A stretch of DNA of 64,000 nucleotides from Escherichia phage LorandFenyves_Bas91, in the sequence record PQ850614.1; one strand, written 5' to 3'. The number at the start of each line of letters is the position of its first letter. Position 1 is the stretch's first letter. The notes under the pieces were generated by a model. The model ran no database searches. It was not told the origin of the DNA and saw only the letters and a list, made by a program, of their open reading frames with translations. A program made the position numbers and the translations under genes. Shown piece by piece: positions 1,735-63,931 of this stretch.

Positions 1735-4700
1735 ATGGCGCTGTATCCAATAAAGTCGCTAGGTGCTGTAGGCGTTATCGCTGATCAGGCTCCGACAGAC
1801 TTAGCTCCTAATGCTTTCACTAATGCTATAAATGCTCGATTTGTTGAGCAGAGAGTATTTAAGACGGGGGGCAATGCCCCTCTTTCTTATGTAGACGAAG
1901 ATAAGGATTTAACCCCTCTGTCTTTCGTTTCTATGCCTTTCGATTATTATAGCGCAGGTAATAGCTTTCTTGTTGTAGGTACAGATAAGAAGTTATATAA
2001 ACTGACAGATGAAAGCTTGACTGATATTAGCCGTAAGGTTGCTACAGTCACCAAGAAGGCTTCTGCCTCAATTAAGATTTATCCAGTTGTTTCTCAGATC
2101 GTTCCTAAAGAATCAACTATCTCAATGAACTTCAATCAGACCAAGAATCTAGAGGTTTCTCTTCTCCCTGCCGATGCTAACAATACTGATCTTATTTGGG
2201 AGGTTAGTAATTCATCCTATGGAAGTGTTACGGTAGACCCTAGTGACTCCAAACTTGCTACTCTAACATCTTTTGAGAAAGAGGGTAATCTTGTAGTAAC
2301 TATCTCTACTGCCAATGAATCCGTAGTGGCTCAGATTGCTGTTAATATCATCGATGGTGATTCAGGCATCTTCTTGAGTCAAGATACTGTTACAATTCGT
2401 AAAGGAGGGACTACTACTCTCACGGCTGTTACTGGCAAAACCCCTGTAACTTGGTCCAGCAATAACGCTTCTATTGTATCTGTAACCCCTAACGCCAACT
2501 CTTTAACTGCTGTCATTACAGCGAATGGAGAAGGTAATGTAACAATCACTGCTGATAACGGGACTAAGACTGCTTCTTGTGAGATTGTTTCTATCCCTCA
2601 GATTGATAGTATCTCTTTAAGCCAGTCAGATGTTACTGTGAGTAGAGGTTCTCAGTATATTTTAACTGCCACCCTTTCTCCTGCTAACGCCCCTAATCAA
2701 AACATTACTTGGACCTCTTCTAACCCAAATATTGCAACAGTATCAGGGACTAGCACACAAGGGACAGTAAATGCTTTACTTGCTGGCTTTACTGAGATTA
2801 CAGCTACCACTGAAGAAGGTAATAGAGTTGCTGTCTGTACTGTACGTGTAGATTTAGCTGGAAGGACAATGAGAACAAGTGCTATGGCATTTGCTGCTCC
2901 TGTATCAGAGTCGGTAGAAACTCAAGATGAGGAAGTAGTAACTCCTCCTGAAAGTGAGGAAGTTGTTTATTTTGCTGAGCCTACATCTGGTATAGATACG
3001 TCAGGGATGTATGAAGGTAATAACTTCTATGACTACTCTAACGTGAATGATATTGAAGGTTTTGCAAGAGCTTCTTTACTGGCAACCCCTTTGTCATCTG
3101 TAACCTTAGATATTGTCAGCGCTTCTCTTGATGTTGGTGAAGAGATTGTCATTACAGCCACAGCTTCTCCAGAAGGTGAGTACTCTTATCAGTGGTCTGT
3201 TGATAAAACTGGTTATGTTTCTACAACTTCAGTTACTGGTAAATCTATCAAACTGGTTGCTCTTCGTAAAGGAGATATTAACGTAACATGTACTGTCAGT
3301 CAGATGACTCAGAAAGATTACGATGCTTTTGATGACTATCCTTGGTATCACGCTGTTATCTCTAACTGTGCAGTTGCTACAACTCACTATGAAACTCCTC
3401 AGGTAAAAGAATTCGAATCAGAATACTTTGTAGACCTTCCGGGGTGGGGTGAGCAAACAGTTGTTGATAATGATGGAAACCCTTCAGTCAAGAAGTTTAA
3501 CTGGAAATGTGAGAGAGTGAGATCTTTTAACAACCGTCTTTTTGCCCTGAATATGAGAGAGGCTAATGCTTCTGGTGTTACCACTAACTACCCGCTTCGT
3601 CTTCGTTGGTCTAACTTTGCCAATGAGAACAAGGCTCCTACACTGTGGGATGATTTTGCTTACGATCGTGTTGTGTCTTCGGACTTAGCTTCTAACATCG
3701 TAGGGCAGACTCAGGCTCTAGAGAATGGATATGCTGGTTACATTGATTTAGCTGACTCTAACGGCAGCTTGATTGATATCCTACCTCTTAAAGATTACTT
3801 GTTCGTTTATACAGAGTTTGAAACGTATATAGGTTCTCCGACTAATAACACGTACCAACCTCTAATGTTCAAGAAGCTCTTTAATGACTCTGGTATCCTT
3901 GCTCCTGAGTGTGTGGTTGAAGTAGAAGGTAGTCACTTCGTAGTTACTCAGAACGATGTAATCTTACACAATGGTGCAACCAAGAAGTCAATTGCATCTA
4001 ACCGTGTCAAGAACATGTTGATTAACGAGGTGTGTCTGGTTAACCCTCTAGCAACTCGAGTACACTTGCATCAGGATAAGAAAGAAGTTTGGGTTCTGTA
4101 CGTAGGTCCGGGAGAACCAAAAGAAAGCTTCGCTTGTACTAAAGCTGCTGTATGGAATTATGAGTTTGATACTTGGTCTTTCCGTACTATTCCATATGCT
4201 CAGTGTATCGGTCTTGTTGATCCTCCTGTTTTAGAAAGAGGTCCAATCTGGTCTGACTTCCAAGAAATCACTTGGGATGACCCATCTATTAAAGAACTTG
4301 TTTGGAGAAAGGATGCAACAAACTTCAGACAGAGGGTTACGATAGTAGGTTCGTTCTTGAGGGGATTCTATCAGGTGGATGTAGGTGCTCTTGACTATTT
4401 CTATGACAGGCTAAACGATGTTGTTATAGAGAAGCCTCTGGAAATGAGGTTGGAGAGGACTGGTATAGATTTTGATAATGTGACTAATGAGTGGAATCAG
4501 AAGCATATTAACAGGTTCCGGCCTCAGACAACCGGTTCAGGTATTTACATATTTGAAGCTGGTGGTAGTCAATTCTCAAATGAATATGGACACCCACACA
4601 CATCGAAGACTTATACAATTGGTGTTGACAGGCATGTCTCGGTGAGACTGAACCATCCATACCTTTTCTATAATGTTATAGATAATGATGTTAACAGTAA

Positions 4701-57511: not shown

Positions 57512-58336
57512 AATATTCACCTTTCAATTGTAAGGGCGCTATTGCCCCGCTCTCTATGAGCTTGTTTAAGTCACTATTAACTTATCTCTAACCACTCACT
57601 TTTTAAGTAGTTACAGGTAAGCGAGGCGGTCTTATCAGGAGTTAACCTTGCCGCCTCCTTATCCGTGATGTTTCATCTGGTATCTTTAATTAGTCGCTAT
57701 AAACGAAGCCGACCTGATAGCGATGATCAATCATCACAATAAGGCAGTGCGTCCGACTCTAATTAGTTACGTTATTGTAACCGTCGGCAATATCGTTTAC
57801 TTTGCTTTCGCTCTCGCCTATCCTTTTGTATCAACTCTCAATCGCTAGTCATCGCCCACTACGGGATACTATTGCGAAAGAGTCATTGACCGTCTAATGT
57901 TCCGACGTTTTATATCTTTCGGCAAGTTTACTACATAAACCGACTATGTACTTTCATCATAAGATGAATCTCAAGCCGTTCACATCGTAAACGTTCACAC
58001 TAAACCTTATTGTTAAATAGCAATTTGCCACTTTTTAACCACTCCCCGCCGCTCTCAATTGAGCGTTAATTCGTCGGGATTGCCTACCCTGATTAACTTC
58101 TTTCACCGTAGCACCGTTTTAGCGATGACCGCCGCTACCCTTAACCGTGGGCGATTAGCTTAAGTCTTTGCGTGTACTCGATGAATCCGTTTTATCAGTG
58201 GTGACGTTTCCAGTAAGGGAATGTAAGATTGTTTTCTCTGATAGTTTAGAGAATCTTACACCGTTTTATCTGGTATGTTATCTGATGGTTATTATCATCT
58301 AACATATTCAACCGATATAGGAGAATGTTTAAATTA

Positions 58337-58347
58337 TTAAAGAGCGG
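58337..58347. repeat. TTAAAGAGCGG 11-mer, copy 1
   Basis: Same 11-mer at 58568-58578 and 58987-58997. The variant TTAAAGAGCTGG is at 58879-58890. Confidence 0.6.
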
Positions 58348-58433
58348 TAAATCTGTCAGTGTGCTTTCTCACACTACGCAACTGTTAGCCGTTGTTACGC
58401 TTTCCTTAAGCGGTGATTTGCTTAAGTGTGCTC

Positions 58434-58462
58434 ATTATGAATCATGTTGTTTTCGCTGTCAA
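58434..58462 (-). promoter_or_regulatory. strong sigma70-type promoter (early)
   Basis: Minus strand TTGACA-N17-CATAAT followed by GAGCA. Near-identical core to 58920-58948. Confidence 0.65.
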
Positions 58463-58567
58463 CCACTTTTTTAATCTTTTTCGTCGTTCCCGCTATTGGG
58501 AGGATATATCAATCAGCTTTATTTGATTGAAGACTAAGCGGTGATGCTTATCTTATGATTCATATTG

Positions 58568-58578
58568 TTAAAGAGCGG
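58568..58578. repeat. TTAAAGAGCGG 11-mer, copy 2
   Basis: Exact repeat. Confidence 0.6.
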
Positions 58579-58591
58579 TTACTACATTTAC

Positions 58592-58619
58592 AGCTTAACA
58601 CATCGTGTTAGCTTGTCAA
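58592..58619 (-). promoter_or_regulatory. sigma70-type promoter candidate
   Basis: Minus strand TTGACA-N16-TAAGCT, with TG two nt upstream of the -10. Confidence 0.4.
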
Positions 58620-58878
58620 CTCTTTTTATCATCTTCTTTTAATTCCTTTCCCTTGTCTCGCGTGAATCTATGCGAAAGGGCAAGATGATAAGTCTGATTT
58701 GTCTTTTAGGAATCTAGTGCGCTTTCAAGCATTGACCATTTGAAAGTATCGAACAAATGAGGCTTATTTTGTTGCTCATCGTCCGCCTGTTCACGTATGA
58801 ATCAGGAATCAATTCTAGTGGTCAACTAAGCGCCTTATAGTAATGACGTTCCCGCCACCTGTAAGACAAATCATATTT

Positions 58879-58890
58879 TTAAAGAGCTGG
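58879..58890. repeat. TTAAAGAGCTGG variant of the 11-mer, copy 3
   Basis: One-nt insertion variant. Confidence 0.5.
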
Positions 58891-58919
58891 ATGTTTCACG
58901 TCATCGCTGACTTATGCTC

Positions 58920-58948
58920 ATTATGTATCAGGCTTTTTCTAGTGTCAA
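58920..58948 (-). promoter_or_regulatory. strong sigma70-type promoter (early)
   Basis: Minus strand TTGACA-N17-CATAAT followed by GAGCA. Confidence 0.65.
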
Positions 58949-58986
58949 TACTCTTTTTCAAGTATTTTCACTTTCTAGCCTGATTT

Positions 58987-58997
58987 TTAAAGAGCGG
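58987..58997. repeat. TTAAAGAGCGG 11-mer, copy 4
   Basis: Exact repeat, about 40 nt upstream (minus sense) of the 58943 -35 box. Confidence 0.6.
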
Positions 58998-59045
58998 GGC
59001 AATTTCTTGCCTTGTATGTTTTACATCGTACCCGATGAAATGAAG

Positions 59046-59054
59046 TATACATTA
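59046..59054 (-). promoter_or_regulatory. TAATGTATA box at the head of the ORF-free tract
   Basis: Exact 9-mer on the minus strand, between the 59230 terminator and the sigma70-type promoters. Confidence 0.4.
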
Positions 59055-59229
59055 ATCAGATGAGGTTGCAATAGGGTAAAGCAAATTATTTTAAACTTTT
59101 TTTGAAAGGTGGGAAGTATAAGAGAATGCGCGCGGGATAACATACGCAAAACAGGCTGTAAATCACTTTCTAACGTCCTGTAAGCCATTCTAACGAGCTA
59201 AAAGGGAGTAAGGTATACAATCACCTTAG

Positions 59230-59258
59230 AAAAGAAAAAAGCCTCATAGTGAGGCTTA
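59230..59258 (-). terminator. intrinsic terminator
   Basis: Minus strand AAGCCTCA-cta-TGAGGCTT followed by TTTTTCTTTT. Confidence 0.65.
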
Positions 59259-59333
59259 TAGGAAGGATTTAAAGCATCAGATAAATTATGACCATAGGCA
59301 TGACTACGGCACAATAAAGAAGAAAGATTAAGC

Positions 59334-59699
59334 CTATGGATTTACACATTGACCGTTACCGGATGCCATTTCATTCATGGACTCATCAAAGAGCGTCAAC
59401 GATGAGCGCATCAAGTGATCCACCGTAATTTGTTTACCGGTAGTTTCATTTACCAGTTGAATAGTTTTAGCGTATGATTGTACATGTTCAAAATCATCAA
59501 CATGCAAAATAATAACTTTAGGTGACTGTTTACCAGTTTCATAGTTTTCTATCAAATAGGTGCACTGTAAACCGTCAACCATATCAGGGGAGAATGTTGC
59601 AGCCTTTACACTACCCATAGCCGATAGCAGGACACCTAACAGGAGAACAACCAGAAAGAAGCCTACAACCGTTTTAACGACGAATTTAATAAACCACAT
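59334..59699 (-). CDS. membrane-anchored/exported early protein (121 aa)
   Basis: N-terminal hydrophobic anchor VVGFFLVVLLLGVLLSAMG. Confidence 0.6.
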   Translation of the reverse strand: MWFIKFVVKTVVGFFLVVLLLGVLLSAMGSVKAATFSPDMVDGLQCTYLIENYETGKQSPKVIILHVDDFEHVQSYAKTIQLVNETTGKQITVDHLMRSSLTLFDESMNEMASGNGQCVNP

Positions 59700-60073: not shown

Positions 60074-60266
60074 AATGATTAACTAGTGCCTGATAATCGT
60101 CAGATGATAACTCACCGCCTAAATAGGCAACGGTTATGCGTGCTTTGTATTCTGACAAACTGCATAGCGCGGGAGCGGATAACCTGCTTTCGCCATAACA
60201 TCCTAGCACTTCAACGATACAACCGTTTAAAGATACTGATTTATTAATCACGATATGGTTAGCCAT
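60045..60266 (-). CDS. hypothetical early protein (73 aa)
   Basis: Start moved to ATG 60266 (AAGGA RBS), which overlaps the upstream stop. Confidence 0.55.
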   Translation of the reverse strand: MANHIVINKSVSLNGCIVEVLGCYGESRLSAPALCSLSEYKARITVAYLGGELSSDDYQALVNHYEDWKRYGK

Positions 60267-60522
60267 TAATATCATCCTTAATTAGCCCATGATTGAGCAG
60301 GTTAGCCAGTGATAAGCCACCGTCAAAATAAACAGAACGAAAATCAGCGCGGGTAATTTCAAGGCCAGCAAACTTCAACCAGTTTTTAGCTGATTGAAAA
60401 TCCATTTTGCAAAAAGTAATAATAGGAACAGTAAGCTGACCATCGAGCGTATTAAACATAATAGCGGTATCGCCAATAAAACAAGAAAAGCCACTAGATA
60501 ATCTAATTTCTTTAATAGCCAT
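60259..60522 (-). CDS. hypothetical early protein (87 aa)
   Basis: GGGAG RBS. Confidence 0.55.
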   Translation of the reverse strand: MAIKEIRLSSGFSCFIGDTAIMFNTLDGQLTVPIITFCKMDFQSAKNWLKFAGLEITRADFRSVYFDGGLSLANLLNHGLIKDDING

Positions 60523-60558: not shown

Positions 60559-61431
60559 TCACTTACTAGCCTTAATACAGTTGGCTAAATTAACGTGAAC
60601 GGTATAAACAGCGTTATCAGCGTTATTGTAAACAGTCGTGGCGATCATCGACTCATTGATCGGGCCATAGCTAACAAGGTTAGTAACGGCTTTAACGTCT
60701 TCATAACGTTGTACAGTGCCGAAAGTCACCATATCCGCATCGTTATCAGTACGCTTAAGCACTAAATCACTGTTAGGCTGATTATCTAACGTTTTAGATT
60801 GAAAGAGAACGCCATCATTAGTAACGTTGCTAAATTTCATCTTTAGCACGATATTATTGCCGTCACTATCCGCACCGTTGCAAATCATCCAACCCTTATT
60901 GATGGAACTAGAGAAGACACTAGCGGCATCAGTTGCAGGAGCAGGACTAGCGATAGCCTTATCAGAAAGAGATGTGACCAGTGCACTAACACCAATAGCT
61001 GCAACCAGTGCATAACTTGCCAGATTAACAGACTTCATAATCTTACTTGCAACAGTAGGCTTGATTGGCTGTTTCTTGTTTTTCTTATTCCATGCTTCAA
61101 CCATGACAGACAAGCGGGATAATTCAGCTTTCACATCGCGGCATGACTCAGGCCAATCCTTCTGATTCCAGCTATCTAAATTTGCTTGAATGTAGCAATT
61201 AATAGCGTCCTGCATATCGGTAAAACCGTTCTCTTTGAACGTGCTTTCATCTTCACACTGTAAAGCGTTCGCAGTAGAGTTAATGATCAAGCAAGCCAGC
61301 ATTACAGAGTTTTTGAATCCTTTACGTGCACTTTCGTTTTCCATCCACGCATCAGGACTACCAACGGTTAAGCCTAAAGAGGAAAGGCTTTCGTTTGCTT
61401 TGTTCAAGTGGTTAATTGCTACTTTAGACAT
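60559..61431 (-). CDS. bitopic membrane early protein (290 aa)
   Basis: GAAGGAA RBS. Helical N-terminal domain, central TMD LASYALVAAIGVSALVTSL, and a beta-type C-terminal domain. First gene after the 61476-61503 promoter. Confidence 0.65.
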   Translation of the reverse strand: MSKVAINHLNKANESLSSLGLTVGSPDAWMENESARKGFKNSVMLACLIINSTANALQCEDESTFKENGFTDMQDAINCYIQANLDSWNQKDWPESCRDVKAELSRLSVMVEAWNKKNKKQPIKPTVASKIMKSVNLASYALVAAIGVSALVTSLSDKAIASPAPATDAASVFSSSINKGWMICNGADSDGNNIVLKMKFSNVTNDGVLFQSKTLDNQPNSDLVLKRTDNDADMVTFGTVQRYEDVKAVTNLVSYGPINESMIATTVYNNADNAVYTVHVNLANCIKASK

Positions 61432-61475
61432 TTGATATTCCTTCTGGTTGATGAAAACTACAAACTACACTCGCA

Positions 61476-61503
61476 ACTATATATTAAAGGAAAAGGCTGT
61501 CAA
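61476..61503 (-). promoter_or_regulatory. strong sigma70-type promoter (leftmost early promoter in transcription order)
   Basis: Minus strand TTGACA-N16-TATAGT, 45 nt before ATG 61431. Confidence 0.65.
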
Positions 61504-61646
61504 CCATTTATTTTCTAACTTTCTTGCATCCTACTGAAAACTAAAGGAATTTAATTTACTAAACTTTCTATACTCAGGGTATCAGCTTACTAGCTATTGT
61601 TACTTTATAACACCAATTCTACGGGCAGCAGACCAACAGACCAGGA

Positions 61647-61683
61647 CACGGGGAGCATACAACCGCAGGACAGACCACGGGGA
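61647..61683. repeat. two CACGGGGA repeats (iteron-like)
   Basis: ACGGGGA at 61648-61654 and 61677-61683, with the same orientation as the 62037-62070 copies. Confidence 0.6.
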
Positions 61684-62035
61684 AATATAGCAAGATAGTG
61701 CGGTAATAATATACCACTTAAATAATTGTATAACTCAAACATCAAAGACGTTCGTACTTCGTACTCACAAAGGCACGCTGAAAAAGAAAGTAATAAAAGA
61801 AACAATTAAAAGAAATACAATCATCCACTTAATTAATACATATATCATTATTGCACTCATAATCATTACTATTGAAACTATTATCAACGTAACTATGGGG
61901 AGCTGAACGGTAACAATACGGTATTATTAGACCTGTTATTATCACGCCTTAACAGACCGTTATCAGAGTATAGCCTTTCTCTCACTCTTTAAAGGGGAAC
62001 TAAATAAACGGGTAGCTAATGTATTGGGTAGTATA

Positions 62036-62070
62036 CACGGGGAAATAATTACGGGGAGTAGGCACGGGGA
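62036..62070. repeat. three (C/T)ACGGGGA repeats spaced 13-14 nt (iteron-like)
   Basis: ACGGGGA at 62037, 62051 and 62064. An AT-rich ~300-bp tract separates them from the 61648/61677 pair. Confidence 0.6.
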
Positions 62071-62223
62071 ACGCTGGAACGTTGAAAGGGAAGGTAAAGG
62101 CATTGCCAATAACCCTTTTTTAAATGAGGACTCCCCCTTTTTAGGAAACGCGCGGCGAGCGGCTAGCCCCATTAGGTCAAATCAGAATTTTAAACTCTTA
62201 TATATAAGGTTGAAAGAGAACTT

Positions 62224-62388
62224 ATGTGGAAAATTAAGTTAATCATTAAGCAATTCAAATGTGATCATGAGTACTATCGGATACGCAAAGCTTACGGGGA
62301 TGAAAGAGTTCACACCCTTTATAAGTCCACTTGGAGATGTAGTAAATGTGGTAAGCTTAAACACAGCACATGGATGGATAGGCCTTAA
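62224..62388 (+). CDS. small Zn-ribbon protein (54 aa), + strand member of the H-x-(W/Y)...CxxCG family
   Basis: Below the track threshold. MWKIKLIIKQFKCDHEYY...CSKCG parallels the 51755/51929 proteins. Preferred over the out-of-frame track ORF 62261..62479. Confidence 0.45.
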   Translation: MWKIKLIIKQFKCDHEYYRIRKAYGDERVHTLYKSTWRCSKCGKLKHSTWMDRP

Positions 62389-62397
62389 CGTGACATG

Positions 62398-62497
62398 GCC
62401 TTTATGGGGGTGCCTTTATGACAAGCCCTTTACTTCAGCGTACACGGGTTGTTGGTATGGGGTGGCCTTTACGGGTTAGATATGCCTAGCCCTTTAT
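62398..62497. repeat. five GCC(C)TTTA(T/C) repeats
   Basis: Copies at 62398, 62412, 62425, 62465 and 62489. Several are followed by (T/C)GGGG/GGGTT, echoing the ACGGGGA motif. Confidence 0.5.
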
Positions 62498-62521
62498 ACT
62501 CTTATTCAGAGGAGAAGAATT

Positions 62522-62776
62522 ATGAATTTAGTATTAGACTTTCTATCAGAGATGGTGCCTCGGTTTAGAACGGAGACATACGCTTTCGTGGTCAATAGTG
62601 ACTCTGAAGAAGGGATGGAAGCTACATGCTTAGGTCGTCTTGTTGATTTAGATGATGAAACAGATTTCGATATTACAATTGATGTAAGTAGTTTTGGTTG
62701 GCTCTTCTTCAGAGCATTCCGCACTTACAGAAAAGAAACATACAAAGATTACAGCAAGGGAGATACAAATGAATAA
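62522..62776 (+). CDS. acidic hypothetical protein (84 aa)
   Basis: GAGGAGAAG RBS. Confidence 0.6.
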   Translation: MNLVLDFLSEMVPRFRTETYAFVVNSDSEEGMEATCLGRLVDLDDETDFDITIDVSSFGWLFFRAFRTYRKETYKDYSKGDTNE

Positions 62777-63401
62777 TTTAATCCAAGCGATGGACCTTAA
62801 CGAGTACAATTCACAGCTATGTCGTTCTGGTTGTAGCTTACAGCATTTAGAAACTATGGGAAATGTTTCAGGATTGGCTGTACAAGATTTATATAGTGGA
62901 AGTATTCTTAAACCAACTATTACGGAGAAGAAAGATATGATGAGTTTAGTAGAACAATACCGTGGACTTCAAGTCGGTACTATTGGTGATAAATATGAGA
63001 ACTACTACAAAGATCGCTCAAAAGTACTTGAAGAAGTTGCACGGGCTAAGCCTTCTACTCTGGAGGTAGTTGAATATGAATCTACTAAACATGATCACCT
63101 CCCTGATTATGCTCGCGCAATGATTGAGATGATTGAAGAAGCTGAATATGAAATGCTCCATGATTACATTACCTCCAAAGATGAATGGCATCGTGATGTT
63201 CGAATCGAAGAAGATGGTACAGAAACAATTACGTGGATTCACAAGAGTGAGTTAGTAGACGACGCACTGCGAGACTACGAAAAATTTTTGGTCGACGGCT
63301 CTATTCTTTTAGAGGAAGAGAAGGGTGCAGAACTTCCGTGGGAAGGTGAGACGATTGCTCTAGGTAAGATGTTTAACCTGTCCGTTGGTGATTGTAAGTA
63401 A
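62769..63401 (+). CDS. hypothetical protein (210 aa)
   Basis: Start moved to ATG 62769 (AAGGGAGA RBS), which overlaps the upstream stop. Confidence 0.6.
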   Translation: MNNLIQAMDLNEYNSQLCRSGCSLQHLETMGNVSGLAVQDLYSGSILKPTITEKKDMMSLVEQYRGLQVGTIGDKYENYYKDRSKVLEEVARAKPSTLEVVEYESTKHDHLPDYARAMIEMIEEAEYEMLHDYITSKDEWHRDVRIEEDGTETITWIHKSELVDDALRDYEKFLVDGSILLEEEKGAELPWEGETIALGKMFNLSVGDCK

Positions 63402-63457: not shown

Positions 63458-63931
63458 ATGTTTGGAGAAAACGGAGAACTCACGCCTGCACAGGTAGCTG
63501 AGATTACAGGAAGATTACCCGGAGTAACGGAAGAACTCGAAAGCCGTGGTATGAACCCAAGCAATGGGAAGTTTCAAAAGGGAAATAAATTCGGACGACC
63601 CAGAGGTAGTAGAGGTAAACTGACACAATTAATGTTGGACCGTGTTGCTGCAAGTCATTTGTCTCCTGATGAAGTGTTAATTCAAATTTACGAAGATCCT
63701 AATATTCCACCTGATCTTAGATTCAAGGCTGCATCAAAAGTTGCAGATCTGGTATATCCTAAGGCGGCCTCTGTTGAAGTTAAGATTGAGGAAGAGAATG
63801 TAATCAACGAAGAATCATTGAATGCACAAATCAAGGACTTCTTGACTGGAGCACTTGGTATCGACGTTATGCCTCCAGAAGAAGACAACTCTGAGGACGC
63901 TGAAAAGGGGGAGGAAGCGGACGAGAGTTAA
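63458..63931 (+). CDS. hypothetical protein; small terminase subunit is a positional guess only
   Basis: AAGGAG RBS. Basic HTH-like N-terminal region (TPAQVAEITGRLPG...KFGRPRGSRGK) and acidic C-terminus. It opens the rightward block. Confidence 0.55.
   Translation: MFGENGELTPAQVAEITGRLPGVTEELESRGMNPSNGKFQKGNKFGRPRGSRGKLTQLMLDRVAASHLSPDEVLIQIYEDPNIPPDLRFKAASKVADLVYPKAASVEVKIEEENVINEESLNAQIKDFLTGALGIDVMPPEEDNSEDAEKGEEADES

Follow-up and report, generated by a model that had tools for sequence, protein, structure and literature searches.

A one-directional heptamer array spans the joined genome ends of the phiEco32-like phage LorandFenyves_Bas91

Short repeated motifs mark terminase sites in several phages, among them the R1-R3 sites of lambda cosB, the hexamers of P1 pac (four and three around the cut) and the pacL and pacR boxes of SPP1. 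The CCTAAAG arrays at the ends of the T7 genome, reportedly named SRL and SRR by Dunn and Studier in 1983, are also short repeats, and RNA polymerase pauses at the T7 concatemer junction. Kuravirus phages possess a short direct terminal repeat (DTR) of 193 bp, for which, in phiEco32, Savalia et al. 2008 is said to be the source. The phiEco32 DTR was determined experimentally and that of YF01 from full-length nanopore reads (PMC9965538); the DTR of phage Paul was determined by PhageTerm, and the published reads of SU10 indicate ends that are blunt and sharp. Here we analyze the corresponding region of Escherichia phage LorandFenyves_Bas91, in a stretch of 64,000 nucleotides (sequence record PQ850614.1, the window). 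The tract in question lies between the first leftward gene (60559-61431), which begins at the ATG at 61431, and the first rightward open reading frame (ORF), which begins at 62224, and it carries repeated copies of the heptamer ACGGGGA. A first-pass annotation had proposed an origin of replication and/or a physical genome end for this tract. The genome-end half of that proposal stands on DTR homology; the origin half is not supported, most of the hallmarks of an iteron origin not having been found. We consider it probable that the tract represents a concatemer junction and that the heptamers are recognition repeats for the packaging or end-forming machinery, the reader most likely being the small terminase.

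The position of the genome ends follows from comparison with relatives whose termini are known. In a database comparison, 95 phage records match the junction region, and in each of the phiEco32 and YF01 records an exact 193-bp repeat is found at the two ends. Positions 1-193 of the phiEco32 DTR align from end to end with window positions 61972-62164 (+ strand) at 94.3% identity, and positions 1-193 of the YF01 DTR align with the same interval at 92.3% identity. The right arm of phiEco32 can be aligned up to 62164 and the left arm from 61972 onward, and because the two arms overlap at 61972-62164, the window is a circularized or permuted assembly in which the DTR has collapsed to one copy. Judged by this homology, the junction tract is the meeting point of both chromosome ends of a phiEco32-like (Kuravirus) phage, as the suggestion of a physical end in a circularized assembly had it. 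Three records, those of phiEco32, SU10 and YF01, stop at the position homologous to 62164, DTR annotations are present in the YF01 and 4E8 records, and the SU7 record, with termini assigned by PhageTerm, ends 53 nt past the homologous left DTR boundary. The DTR homology, the record ends and the published termini of relatives together place the physical left end at 61972 and the physical right end at 62164. The repeat is no different from the Kuravirus DTRs of phiEco32, SU10, Paul and YF01: its sequence is homologous (94% to phiEco32), its length of 193 bp and its boundaries are equal, and it contains the internal repeat CCCTTTTTTA, 10 nt, CCCCCTTTTTA published for SU10; the one departure is that it is found here as a single copy in the middle of an assembly. 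The assembly should be opened with its left end at 61972 and its right end at 62164, and the DTR restored at both ends.

Both DTR boundaries are marked by the same short sequence. In 18 genomes, each boundary reads CT↓RG(C/G)(C/T), where the arrow marks the boundary. The left boundary has the form ..CT↓RGCCTYTC and the right boundary ..SCT↓AGSY, and the shared CT↓AGCC-like motif occupies 61969-61975 and 62161-62168 in the window. The right cut sequence, GGCT↓AGCC, is a palindrome. The shared motif suggests a single nuclease specificity for both DTR cuts.

The heptamers are distributed around and within this repeat. All five of the ACGGGGA copies listed by the first-pass annotation, at 61648, 61677, 62037, 62051 and 62064, are present on the + strand with spacings of 29, 14 and 13 nt, and a sixth copy, which it had missed, is found at 62294. 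No further copy exists on either strand of the 64-kb window. The count for the whole window is unremarkable (6 versus 2.6 expected; 3 of 100 shuffles reach 6). What stands out is the clustering: by our own arithmetic, the chance of finding the six in a single 653-nt span of one strand is approximately 6 x (653/64000)^5 x (1/2)^5, or ~2e-11. No other 7-mer of the complete phiEco32 genome is as clustered for its copy number as ACGGGGA, whose six distinct + strand copies are all within 700 bp of the end junction; a lone - strand copy is at 74322. The broader pattern A[CT]GGG[GTC][AT] has 12 sites in the window, all on the + strand (61621, 61648, 61677, 61895, 62008, 62037, 62051, 62064, 62294, 62444, 62457 and 62471), and 11 of them were counted as a family, A(C/T)GGG(G/T)N. 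The site left out, ATGGGGA at 61895, is present as the first-pass annotation reported, where it was taken for a degenerate copy. In MLP3 and ManiMatter, which have a different family motif, this site reads ATGGGGG; it therefore probably lies outside the family and would instead be part of a separate conserved block.

The family spans ~850 bp, with three sites left of the DTR and ~300 bp away from it, four inside and four to the right, all on the + strand. The left cluster (61621-61683) consists of ACGGGCA at 61621, which is ACGGGTA in relatives, and the two ACGGGGA copies at 61648 and 61677. Inside the DTR (62008-62070) are ACGGGTA at 62008 and the three ACGGGGA copies at 62037, 62051 and 62064, and to the right (62294-62477) are ACGGGGA at 62294, within gene 1, followed by ACGGGTT at 62444, ATGGGGT at 62457 and ACGGGTT at 62471. 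Heptamers therefore flank both DTR boundaries, and the array as a whole is upstream of the putative small terminase gene, terS, which is followed by that of the large terminase, terL. The core ACGGG occurs ten times on the + strand and never on the - strand in 61600-62500, compared with 34 (+) and 14 (-) in the whole window, and the heptamers number ~11 per kb at the junction, whereas the rest of the window has 0.4-0.5 per kb on each strand. In 18 related junctions of 1.1 kb each, there are 174 family copies on the + strand and one on the - strand.

Could such an array simply be left over from local duplications and have no role, persisting together with a terminal repeat that is itself conserved? 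Slippage can generate short G-rich repeats, and over its full length the DTR shows 91% conservation. However, within the DTR the heptamer columns are significantly more conserved than the rest (27 of 28 columns invariant versus 75 of 118 other columns; Fisher p=4e-4), and the copies outside the DTR survive replacement of their flanks: the left-cluster sites are positionally conserved in 10 close relatives, and the left pair is kept in MN03 and NJ01 despite unrelated sequence directly to its left. The arrays also change in concert. DTR heptamers are CACGGG(G), four times, in 4E8, KarlSchell, EP335 and KBNP1711, and ATGGGTA, three to four times, in StefiGeyer and MLP3. In the latter two phages the right-flank sites read ATGGGT[GT], and the left cluster of StefiGeyer, MLP3 and SU7 reads A[CT]GGGTA at 28-30-nt spacing, so that in the SU7-like lineage (StefiGeyer, MLP3 and SU7) all three sub-arrays have switched together to ATGGGTA or ATGGGT[GT]. 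The shift of heptamer position 2 from C to T is significant (Fisher p=0.008). More distant metagenomic relatives, with small terminase (TerS) sequences ~50-78% identical, have arrays on the + strand only, upstream of terS, with spacings of 13-14 and ~30 nt; pairs at ~30-nt spacing occur in L031-L033, ACGGGT[AG] arrays in L032 and L033, and L036, with a TerS only ~50% identical, keeps ACGGGGA itself. Conservation of ACGGGGA in related genomes was one of the points that the first-pass annotation had named as bearing on its proposal, and the copies are conserved in relatives. With copies surviving replaced flanks, concerted change across sub-arrays, persistence at ~50% TerS identity and a strand bias of 174:1, the notion that the heptamers have no function is highly improbable. 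Constraint, concerted change and strict polarity are what would be expected of sites read by a single sequence-specific protein.

The L036 array has features of its own. In this metagenomic contig (SRR24115948_61188), positions 2457-3082 contain five ACGGGGA and eight ACGGGG upstream of terS and none on the other strand, and spacings of 13-14 nt are joined by three successive 47-nt steps. The contig has a split terL, with an HNH gene adjoining terS. A possible hairpin in the Bas91 DTR between GGGGAGT (62053) and ACTCCCC (62133) was rejected, as the complementarity is lost in ATGGGTA-type lineages. Literature on the ends of phiEco32-group phages does not mention the heptamer family, the primary phiEco32 papers (Savalia 2008, Pavlova 2012) being outside the scope of that search, and literature searches for the heptamer and for T7 CCTAAAG found nothing relevant. 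The DTR and the early promoter described below are already published knowledge; what appears to be undescribed is that the array reaches past the DTR, is polar and evolves in concert, and that the cut-site motif is repeated.

The closest architectural parallel is T7. In a scan of the T7 sequence, the 160-bp terminal repeat contained three copies of CCTAAAG. Eight exact copies follow directly right of the repeat with a period of 13 nt, and two more, 29 nt apart, immediately precede the right repeat; all exact copies are on one strand and none on the - strand. Both phages thus have a short DTR (160 bp in T7, 193 bp here), with one heptamer present three to four times inside the repeat and in both flanks, on a single strand, at 13-14-nt spacing plus a 29-nt-spaced pair left of the right repeat. 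In both, moreover, the first host-type early promoter is preceded by a long non-coding leader: ~500 bp at the T7 leading end, where A1 is at 498, and ~660 bp here. The heptamer sequences are nevertheless unrelated, the phage families are different, and the left cluster is ~300 bp from the repeat here, as against ~70-100 bp in T7. The phiEco32 group is published as having no RNA polymerase of its own, so that there is no counterpart of the T7 end-adjoining promoters; phage RNA-polymerase promoters or a pause site of T7 type are not seen in the tract, where the sole phage-type box, at 62017, is not conserved. Lambda cosB, P1 pac and SPP1 resemble the Bas91 junction in having several copies of a short motif flanking the cleavage position and a site adjoining the terminase genes. 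They differ in that cohesive ends or headful cuts are made there and a duplicated short DTR here, and in that binding by the small terminase was shown there and would be expected here by inference.

Salmonella phage 7-11 offers a different arrangement. At its record ends (L027/L028) there is a ~2.8-kb non-coding junction with other one-directional repeats (TGTGGATA-like, four copies; ATGTTATA, four copies; ATCAGTG, four to six copies), and with an element resembling the 3' block of the Kuravirus DTR, GAGGACGACCCACTTCCCCCTTTT, and the related GAGGAC..CCCCCTTTT. This junction was set aside as evidence, since the true termini of 7-11 are not established by its record ends.

The first-pass annotation had seen in the repeats and the AT-rich segment the classical layout of iterons with an unwinding element. 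According to this explanation, a phage initiator would bind ACGGGGA on both sides and melt an AT-rich core at 61690-61990. The AT-rich segment is real: GC content is 0.24-0.40 in 100-nt windows over 61700-61999, with a minimum of 0.24 at 61800-61899, and the direct repeats do stand on both sides of a segment of 24-35% GC. As in lambda ori or plasmid oriV, direct repeats adjoin the AT-rich segment and co-vary with the lineage, as iterons do with their initiators; the core part 61822-61900 is strongly conserved; our literature search turned up no mapped origin for the phiEco32 group; and the two T7 promoters annotated next to the ends are secondary origins. The repeats themselves differ from known iterons in length, spacing, number and spread: they are 7-bp cores in one orientation, spaced at 13-14 or 29 nt with gaps of hundreds of nucleotides over ~850 bp, rather than compact, phased repeats of 17-22 bp. 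The apparent bracketing of an AT-rich core arises largely because the collapsed junction was read as one tract, when the right cluster is inside the terminal repeat. In the linear infecting genome that cluster would be at the extreme ends, with four copies inside the terminal repeat and four more beyond it, in or after gene 1.

Nor are the expected partners of an iteron origin seen. The tract contains neither an IHF consensus nor a DnaA box, and DnaA boxes show no enrichment in the window; the nearest DnaA-box match, at 62225-62233 on the - strand, is just outside the tract at the start of gene 1. No initiator-like family was recognized in the six flanking ORFs, the part of the genome scanned for one, and no initiator is listed among the product names of the phiEco32 record. 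The replication genes published for the group are a T7-like polymerase, a primase/helicase and a ligase. Approximately half of the AT-rich core (61728-61821 and 61901-61971) is indel-rich, poorly conserved spacer. An origin read through these repeats is, on this evidence, unlikely, and we prefer to regard them as packaging or end-forming repeats.

Conservation of the tract in an 11-genome alignment is distinctly modular. The block at 61640-61727, containing the heptamer pair and GCAAGATAGTGCGGTAATAATATACCACTTAAATAATT, has 73% of columns invariant, even though in MN03 and NJ01 the sequence just left of it is unrelated. It is followed by a variable AT-rich spacer at 61728-61821 (30% invariant, with gaps in 57% of alignment columns), a conserved AT-rich block at 61822-61900 (82% invariant, 28% GC, with AACTATGGGG at its right edge), and a variable segment directly left of the DTR at 61901-61971 (15% invariant, gaps in 52% of alignment columns). 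In the DTR (61972-62164), 69% of columns are invariant. The deepest-conserved non-coding element is at 62113-62164 on the + strand and ends at the right DTR boundary; it consists of CCCTTTTTTA, 10 nt, CCCCCTTTTTA, then GGAAACGCGCGGCGAGCGGCT, and is conserved in every lineage aligned. This 3' part of the DTR, CCCTTTTTTA, 10 nt, CCCCCTTTTTAGGAAACGCGCGG..GCT, continues over the right boundary into GGTCAAATCAGAATTTTAAACTCTTATATA, and its core AATGAGGACTCCCCCTTTT is retained in metagenomic relatives with a TerS only 62-78% identical. The internal repeat in this part was noted for SU10, and conservation of DTR nucleotides 130-170 has been noted (PMC9965538).

Immediately right of the DTR, a leader at 62165-62209 (+ strand, GGTCAAATCAGAATTTTAAACTCTTATATATAAGG) is near-invariant in all lineages. 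It is a candidate for the gene 1 promoter and/or part of the cleavage signal: the SU10 authors listed the leader as a "potential sigma-70 promoter" (PMC4281155 Table S2). A consensus scan called no promoter in it. An Rfam scan of 61200-62800 gave no match at E<=1, and so no known RNA family. Within the DTR, 62017-62031 exists in two haplotypes among close relatives, TAATGTATTGGGTAG and TAATGAATAGGATGG. Intermediate forms were not observed, a pattern that suggests mosaicism of the terminal repeat by recombination.

A third explanation would assign the heptamers to transcriptional control, as binding sites for a phage regulator or as a polar pause or roadblock that curbs early leftward transcription and read-through of the junction, comparable to the RNA-polymerase pause at the T7 junction. 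Leftward early transcription does start here, as the first-pass annotation had supposed: a sigma-70 promoter at 61503-61476 (- strand; TTGACA, 16 nt, TATAGT) that matches 11 of 12 consensus positions precedes the first leftward gene, the homologue of phiEco32 gene 128. It lies ~660 bp inside the right end and is 90-97% conserved in Kuravirus, Nieuwekanaalvirus and Suseptimavirus-like relatives. The SU10 "early promoter upstream of CDS125" matches it, bar one extra T after the -10 in the published string (PMC4281155 Table S2). Two further sites may be additional leftward promoters: a weak site, TTGATA at 61887-61882, 17 nt, GATTAT at 61864-61859 (- strand, 9 of 12 consensus positions), which is partly conserved in EP335, 4E8, KBNP1711 and ManiMatter, and an extended -10 candidate, TGGTATATT, at 61716-61708 (- strand), identified by inspection only.

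The left heptamer cluster is between these two candidates and the strong promoter, the strict one-strand orientation would suit a polar signal, and the phage is published to reprogram host RNA polymerase through its own sigma factor and gp79. Most copies, however, are far from any mapped promoter, four are within the terminal repeat and four downstream of the gene 1 start, and a single promoter has been reported upstream of the first leftward gene in phiEco32 and SU10. The TAATGTATT box at 62017-62025 (+ strand), which the first-pass annotation had read as facing rightward, is indeed present and matches the gp36 promoter consensus tAATGTAtA at 8 of 9 positions. It is not conserved: in phiEco32, YF01, phiEc_1, SR02, MN03 and NJ01 it reads TAATGAATA. 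The phiEco32 genes listed downstream of gp36-dependent promoters are only 6, 13, 26, 40, 58 and 68 (PMC8948821). Being neither conserved nor upstream of a listed gp36-dependent gene, the box was rejected as a gp36-type phage promoter and is probably not a promoter. Taken together, a transcriptional role for the array is quite unlikely.

A fourth explanation is that the heptamers are tied to the genome ends through something other than terminase, binding a virion or early protein that would protect or anchor the leading DNA end or help to eject it. The copies are concentrated within ~520 bp of the right end and within 510 bp of the left end, and the 660-bp non-coding leader before the early promoter resembles the leading end of T7 with A1 at 498. 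Yet no protein is known as a candidate, the arrays reach into genes, and we know of no established case of sequence-specific end binding in short-DTR podophages. We regard this role as very unlikely.

How would packaging repeats work at this junction? Read from left to right, the junction comprises a right-arm non-coding leader, whose strong early sigma-70 promoter is directed leftward at the early genes, then the single collapsed 193-bp DTR at 61972-62164, and a short left-arm leader followed by gene 1 and, 1.3 kb on, the terminase genes. The heptamers would be recognized by one sequence-specific protein that co-evolves with the lineage, marking the junction and giving it polarity. The large terminase would cut at the two similar CT↓AGCC boundary sequences, the terminal repeat would then be duplicated, and packaging would run rightward from the left end. 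The candidate reader is the putative small terminase of 157 aa encoded at 63458-63931 (+ strand), the homologue of phiEco32 gp6, which in phiEco32 is encoded directly upstream of the large terminase. A 42-sequence profile of gp6 homologues matched two small terminases of solved structure, 7joq (E=0.0028) and 6w7t (E=0.048), and the YF01 authors made the small-terminase assignment by HHpred. In six lineages, TerS residues N33/N36 seemed to accompany heptamer C2/G6, and E33/T36 to accompany T2/T6, a pattern from which L036 departs.

TerS residues 31-61 (window 63548-63640) contain a basic motif, FxKGNKFGRPKGSRxKxTQ, that is largely kept in the 42 homologues. It holds an AT-hook-like GRP core, with a weak match to Pfam DUF5681 (E=0.059). 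The motif could be a DNA-contacting segment, the heptamers usually having AT-rich flanks.

Several observations weigh against assigning the heptamers to packaging, or to TerS in particular. To our knowledge, the role of the T7 heptamers was never settled, and the T7 analogy would transfer architecture, not mechanism. The conserved blocks at 61640-61727 and 61822-61900 are not accounted for by packaging. The TerS assignment of the protein encoded at 63458-63931 is borderline: its AlphaFold model has a mean predicted local distance difference test (pLDDT) score of 68.6, and a Foldseek search against the PDB gave no significant match. TerS is 91-93% identical between ACGGGGA-type and ATGGGTA-type phages, and the residue-base correlation is broken by L036, which has T at residue 36 yet ACGGGGA heptamers. 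The identity of the reader is thus something we infer, and the cutting and duplication steps would follow from it.

The genes around the junction add little to these considerations. Gene 1 (62224-62479) is framed differently between records, being annotated at 296-496 in phiEco32 and as the homologue of 62224-62388 in phiEc_1 and others. The 62224-62388 frame, the only gene 1 frame tested, has PHROG support (phrog_7696, E=6e-17). In the segment at 62395-62500, five GCCTTTA/CCCTTTA repeats alternate with the heptamers right of the DTR in units such as GGCCTTTACGGGTT, a terminator-like hairpin is at 62473-62492, and the segment is mosaic, with indels among close relatives. Pfam and PHROG scans of the flanking genes gave nothing informative. 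Three ORFs called in the tract (61605..61805, 61963..62172 and 62024..62242) had been dismissed as noise by the first-pass annotation, and rightly so: they have no Pfam family match and overlie indel-rich or DTR sequence. We caution against annotating these spurious ORFs, or an unsupported origin, at this locus.

Further to the left, 57520-59334 is a 1.8-kb region with no ORF of at least 50 aa except for one of 55 aa. It contains five spaced copies of ATTnTTAAAGAGC(G/T)G, at 58005, 58333, 58564, 58875 and 58983, and corresponds to the SU10 spacer that holds three early sigma-70 promoters. The region may be a source of non-coding early RNAs or, alternatively, a candidate origin. The small early genes at 59334-59699, 60259-60522 and 62694-63401 have been given the implausible public names "terminase," "polymerase" and "ABC transporter," which seem to propagate from PHROG labels and are not to be trusted.

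The genome ends of a whole phage group carry a conserved, strand-polar array whose copies change together from lineage to lineage, and this array mirrors the long-known, still unexplained heptamer arrays of T7. The natural variants ACGGGGA, ACGGGTA and ATGGGTA, together with the repeated cut motif, provide a ready swap test for the end-recognizing protein and for DTR formation. A bolder view, which we hold only tentatively and with the chances well below even, is that the one-directional array and the duplicated CT↓AGCC form a complete cis-acting code for short DTRs in a phage that lacks its own RNA polymerase. On this view, the small terminase would polymerize along the heptamers, measure 193 bp between identical cut sites and set the direction of packaging. 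If this were true, the phiEco32-like phages would be a simple system for understanding how short DTRs are cut and duplicated.

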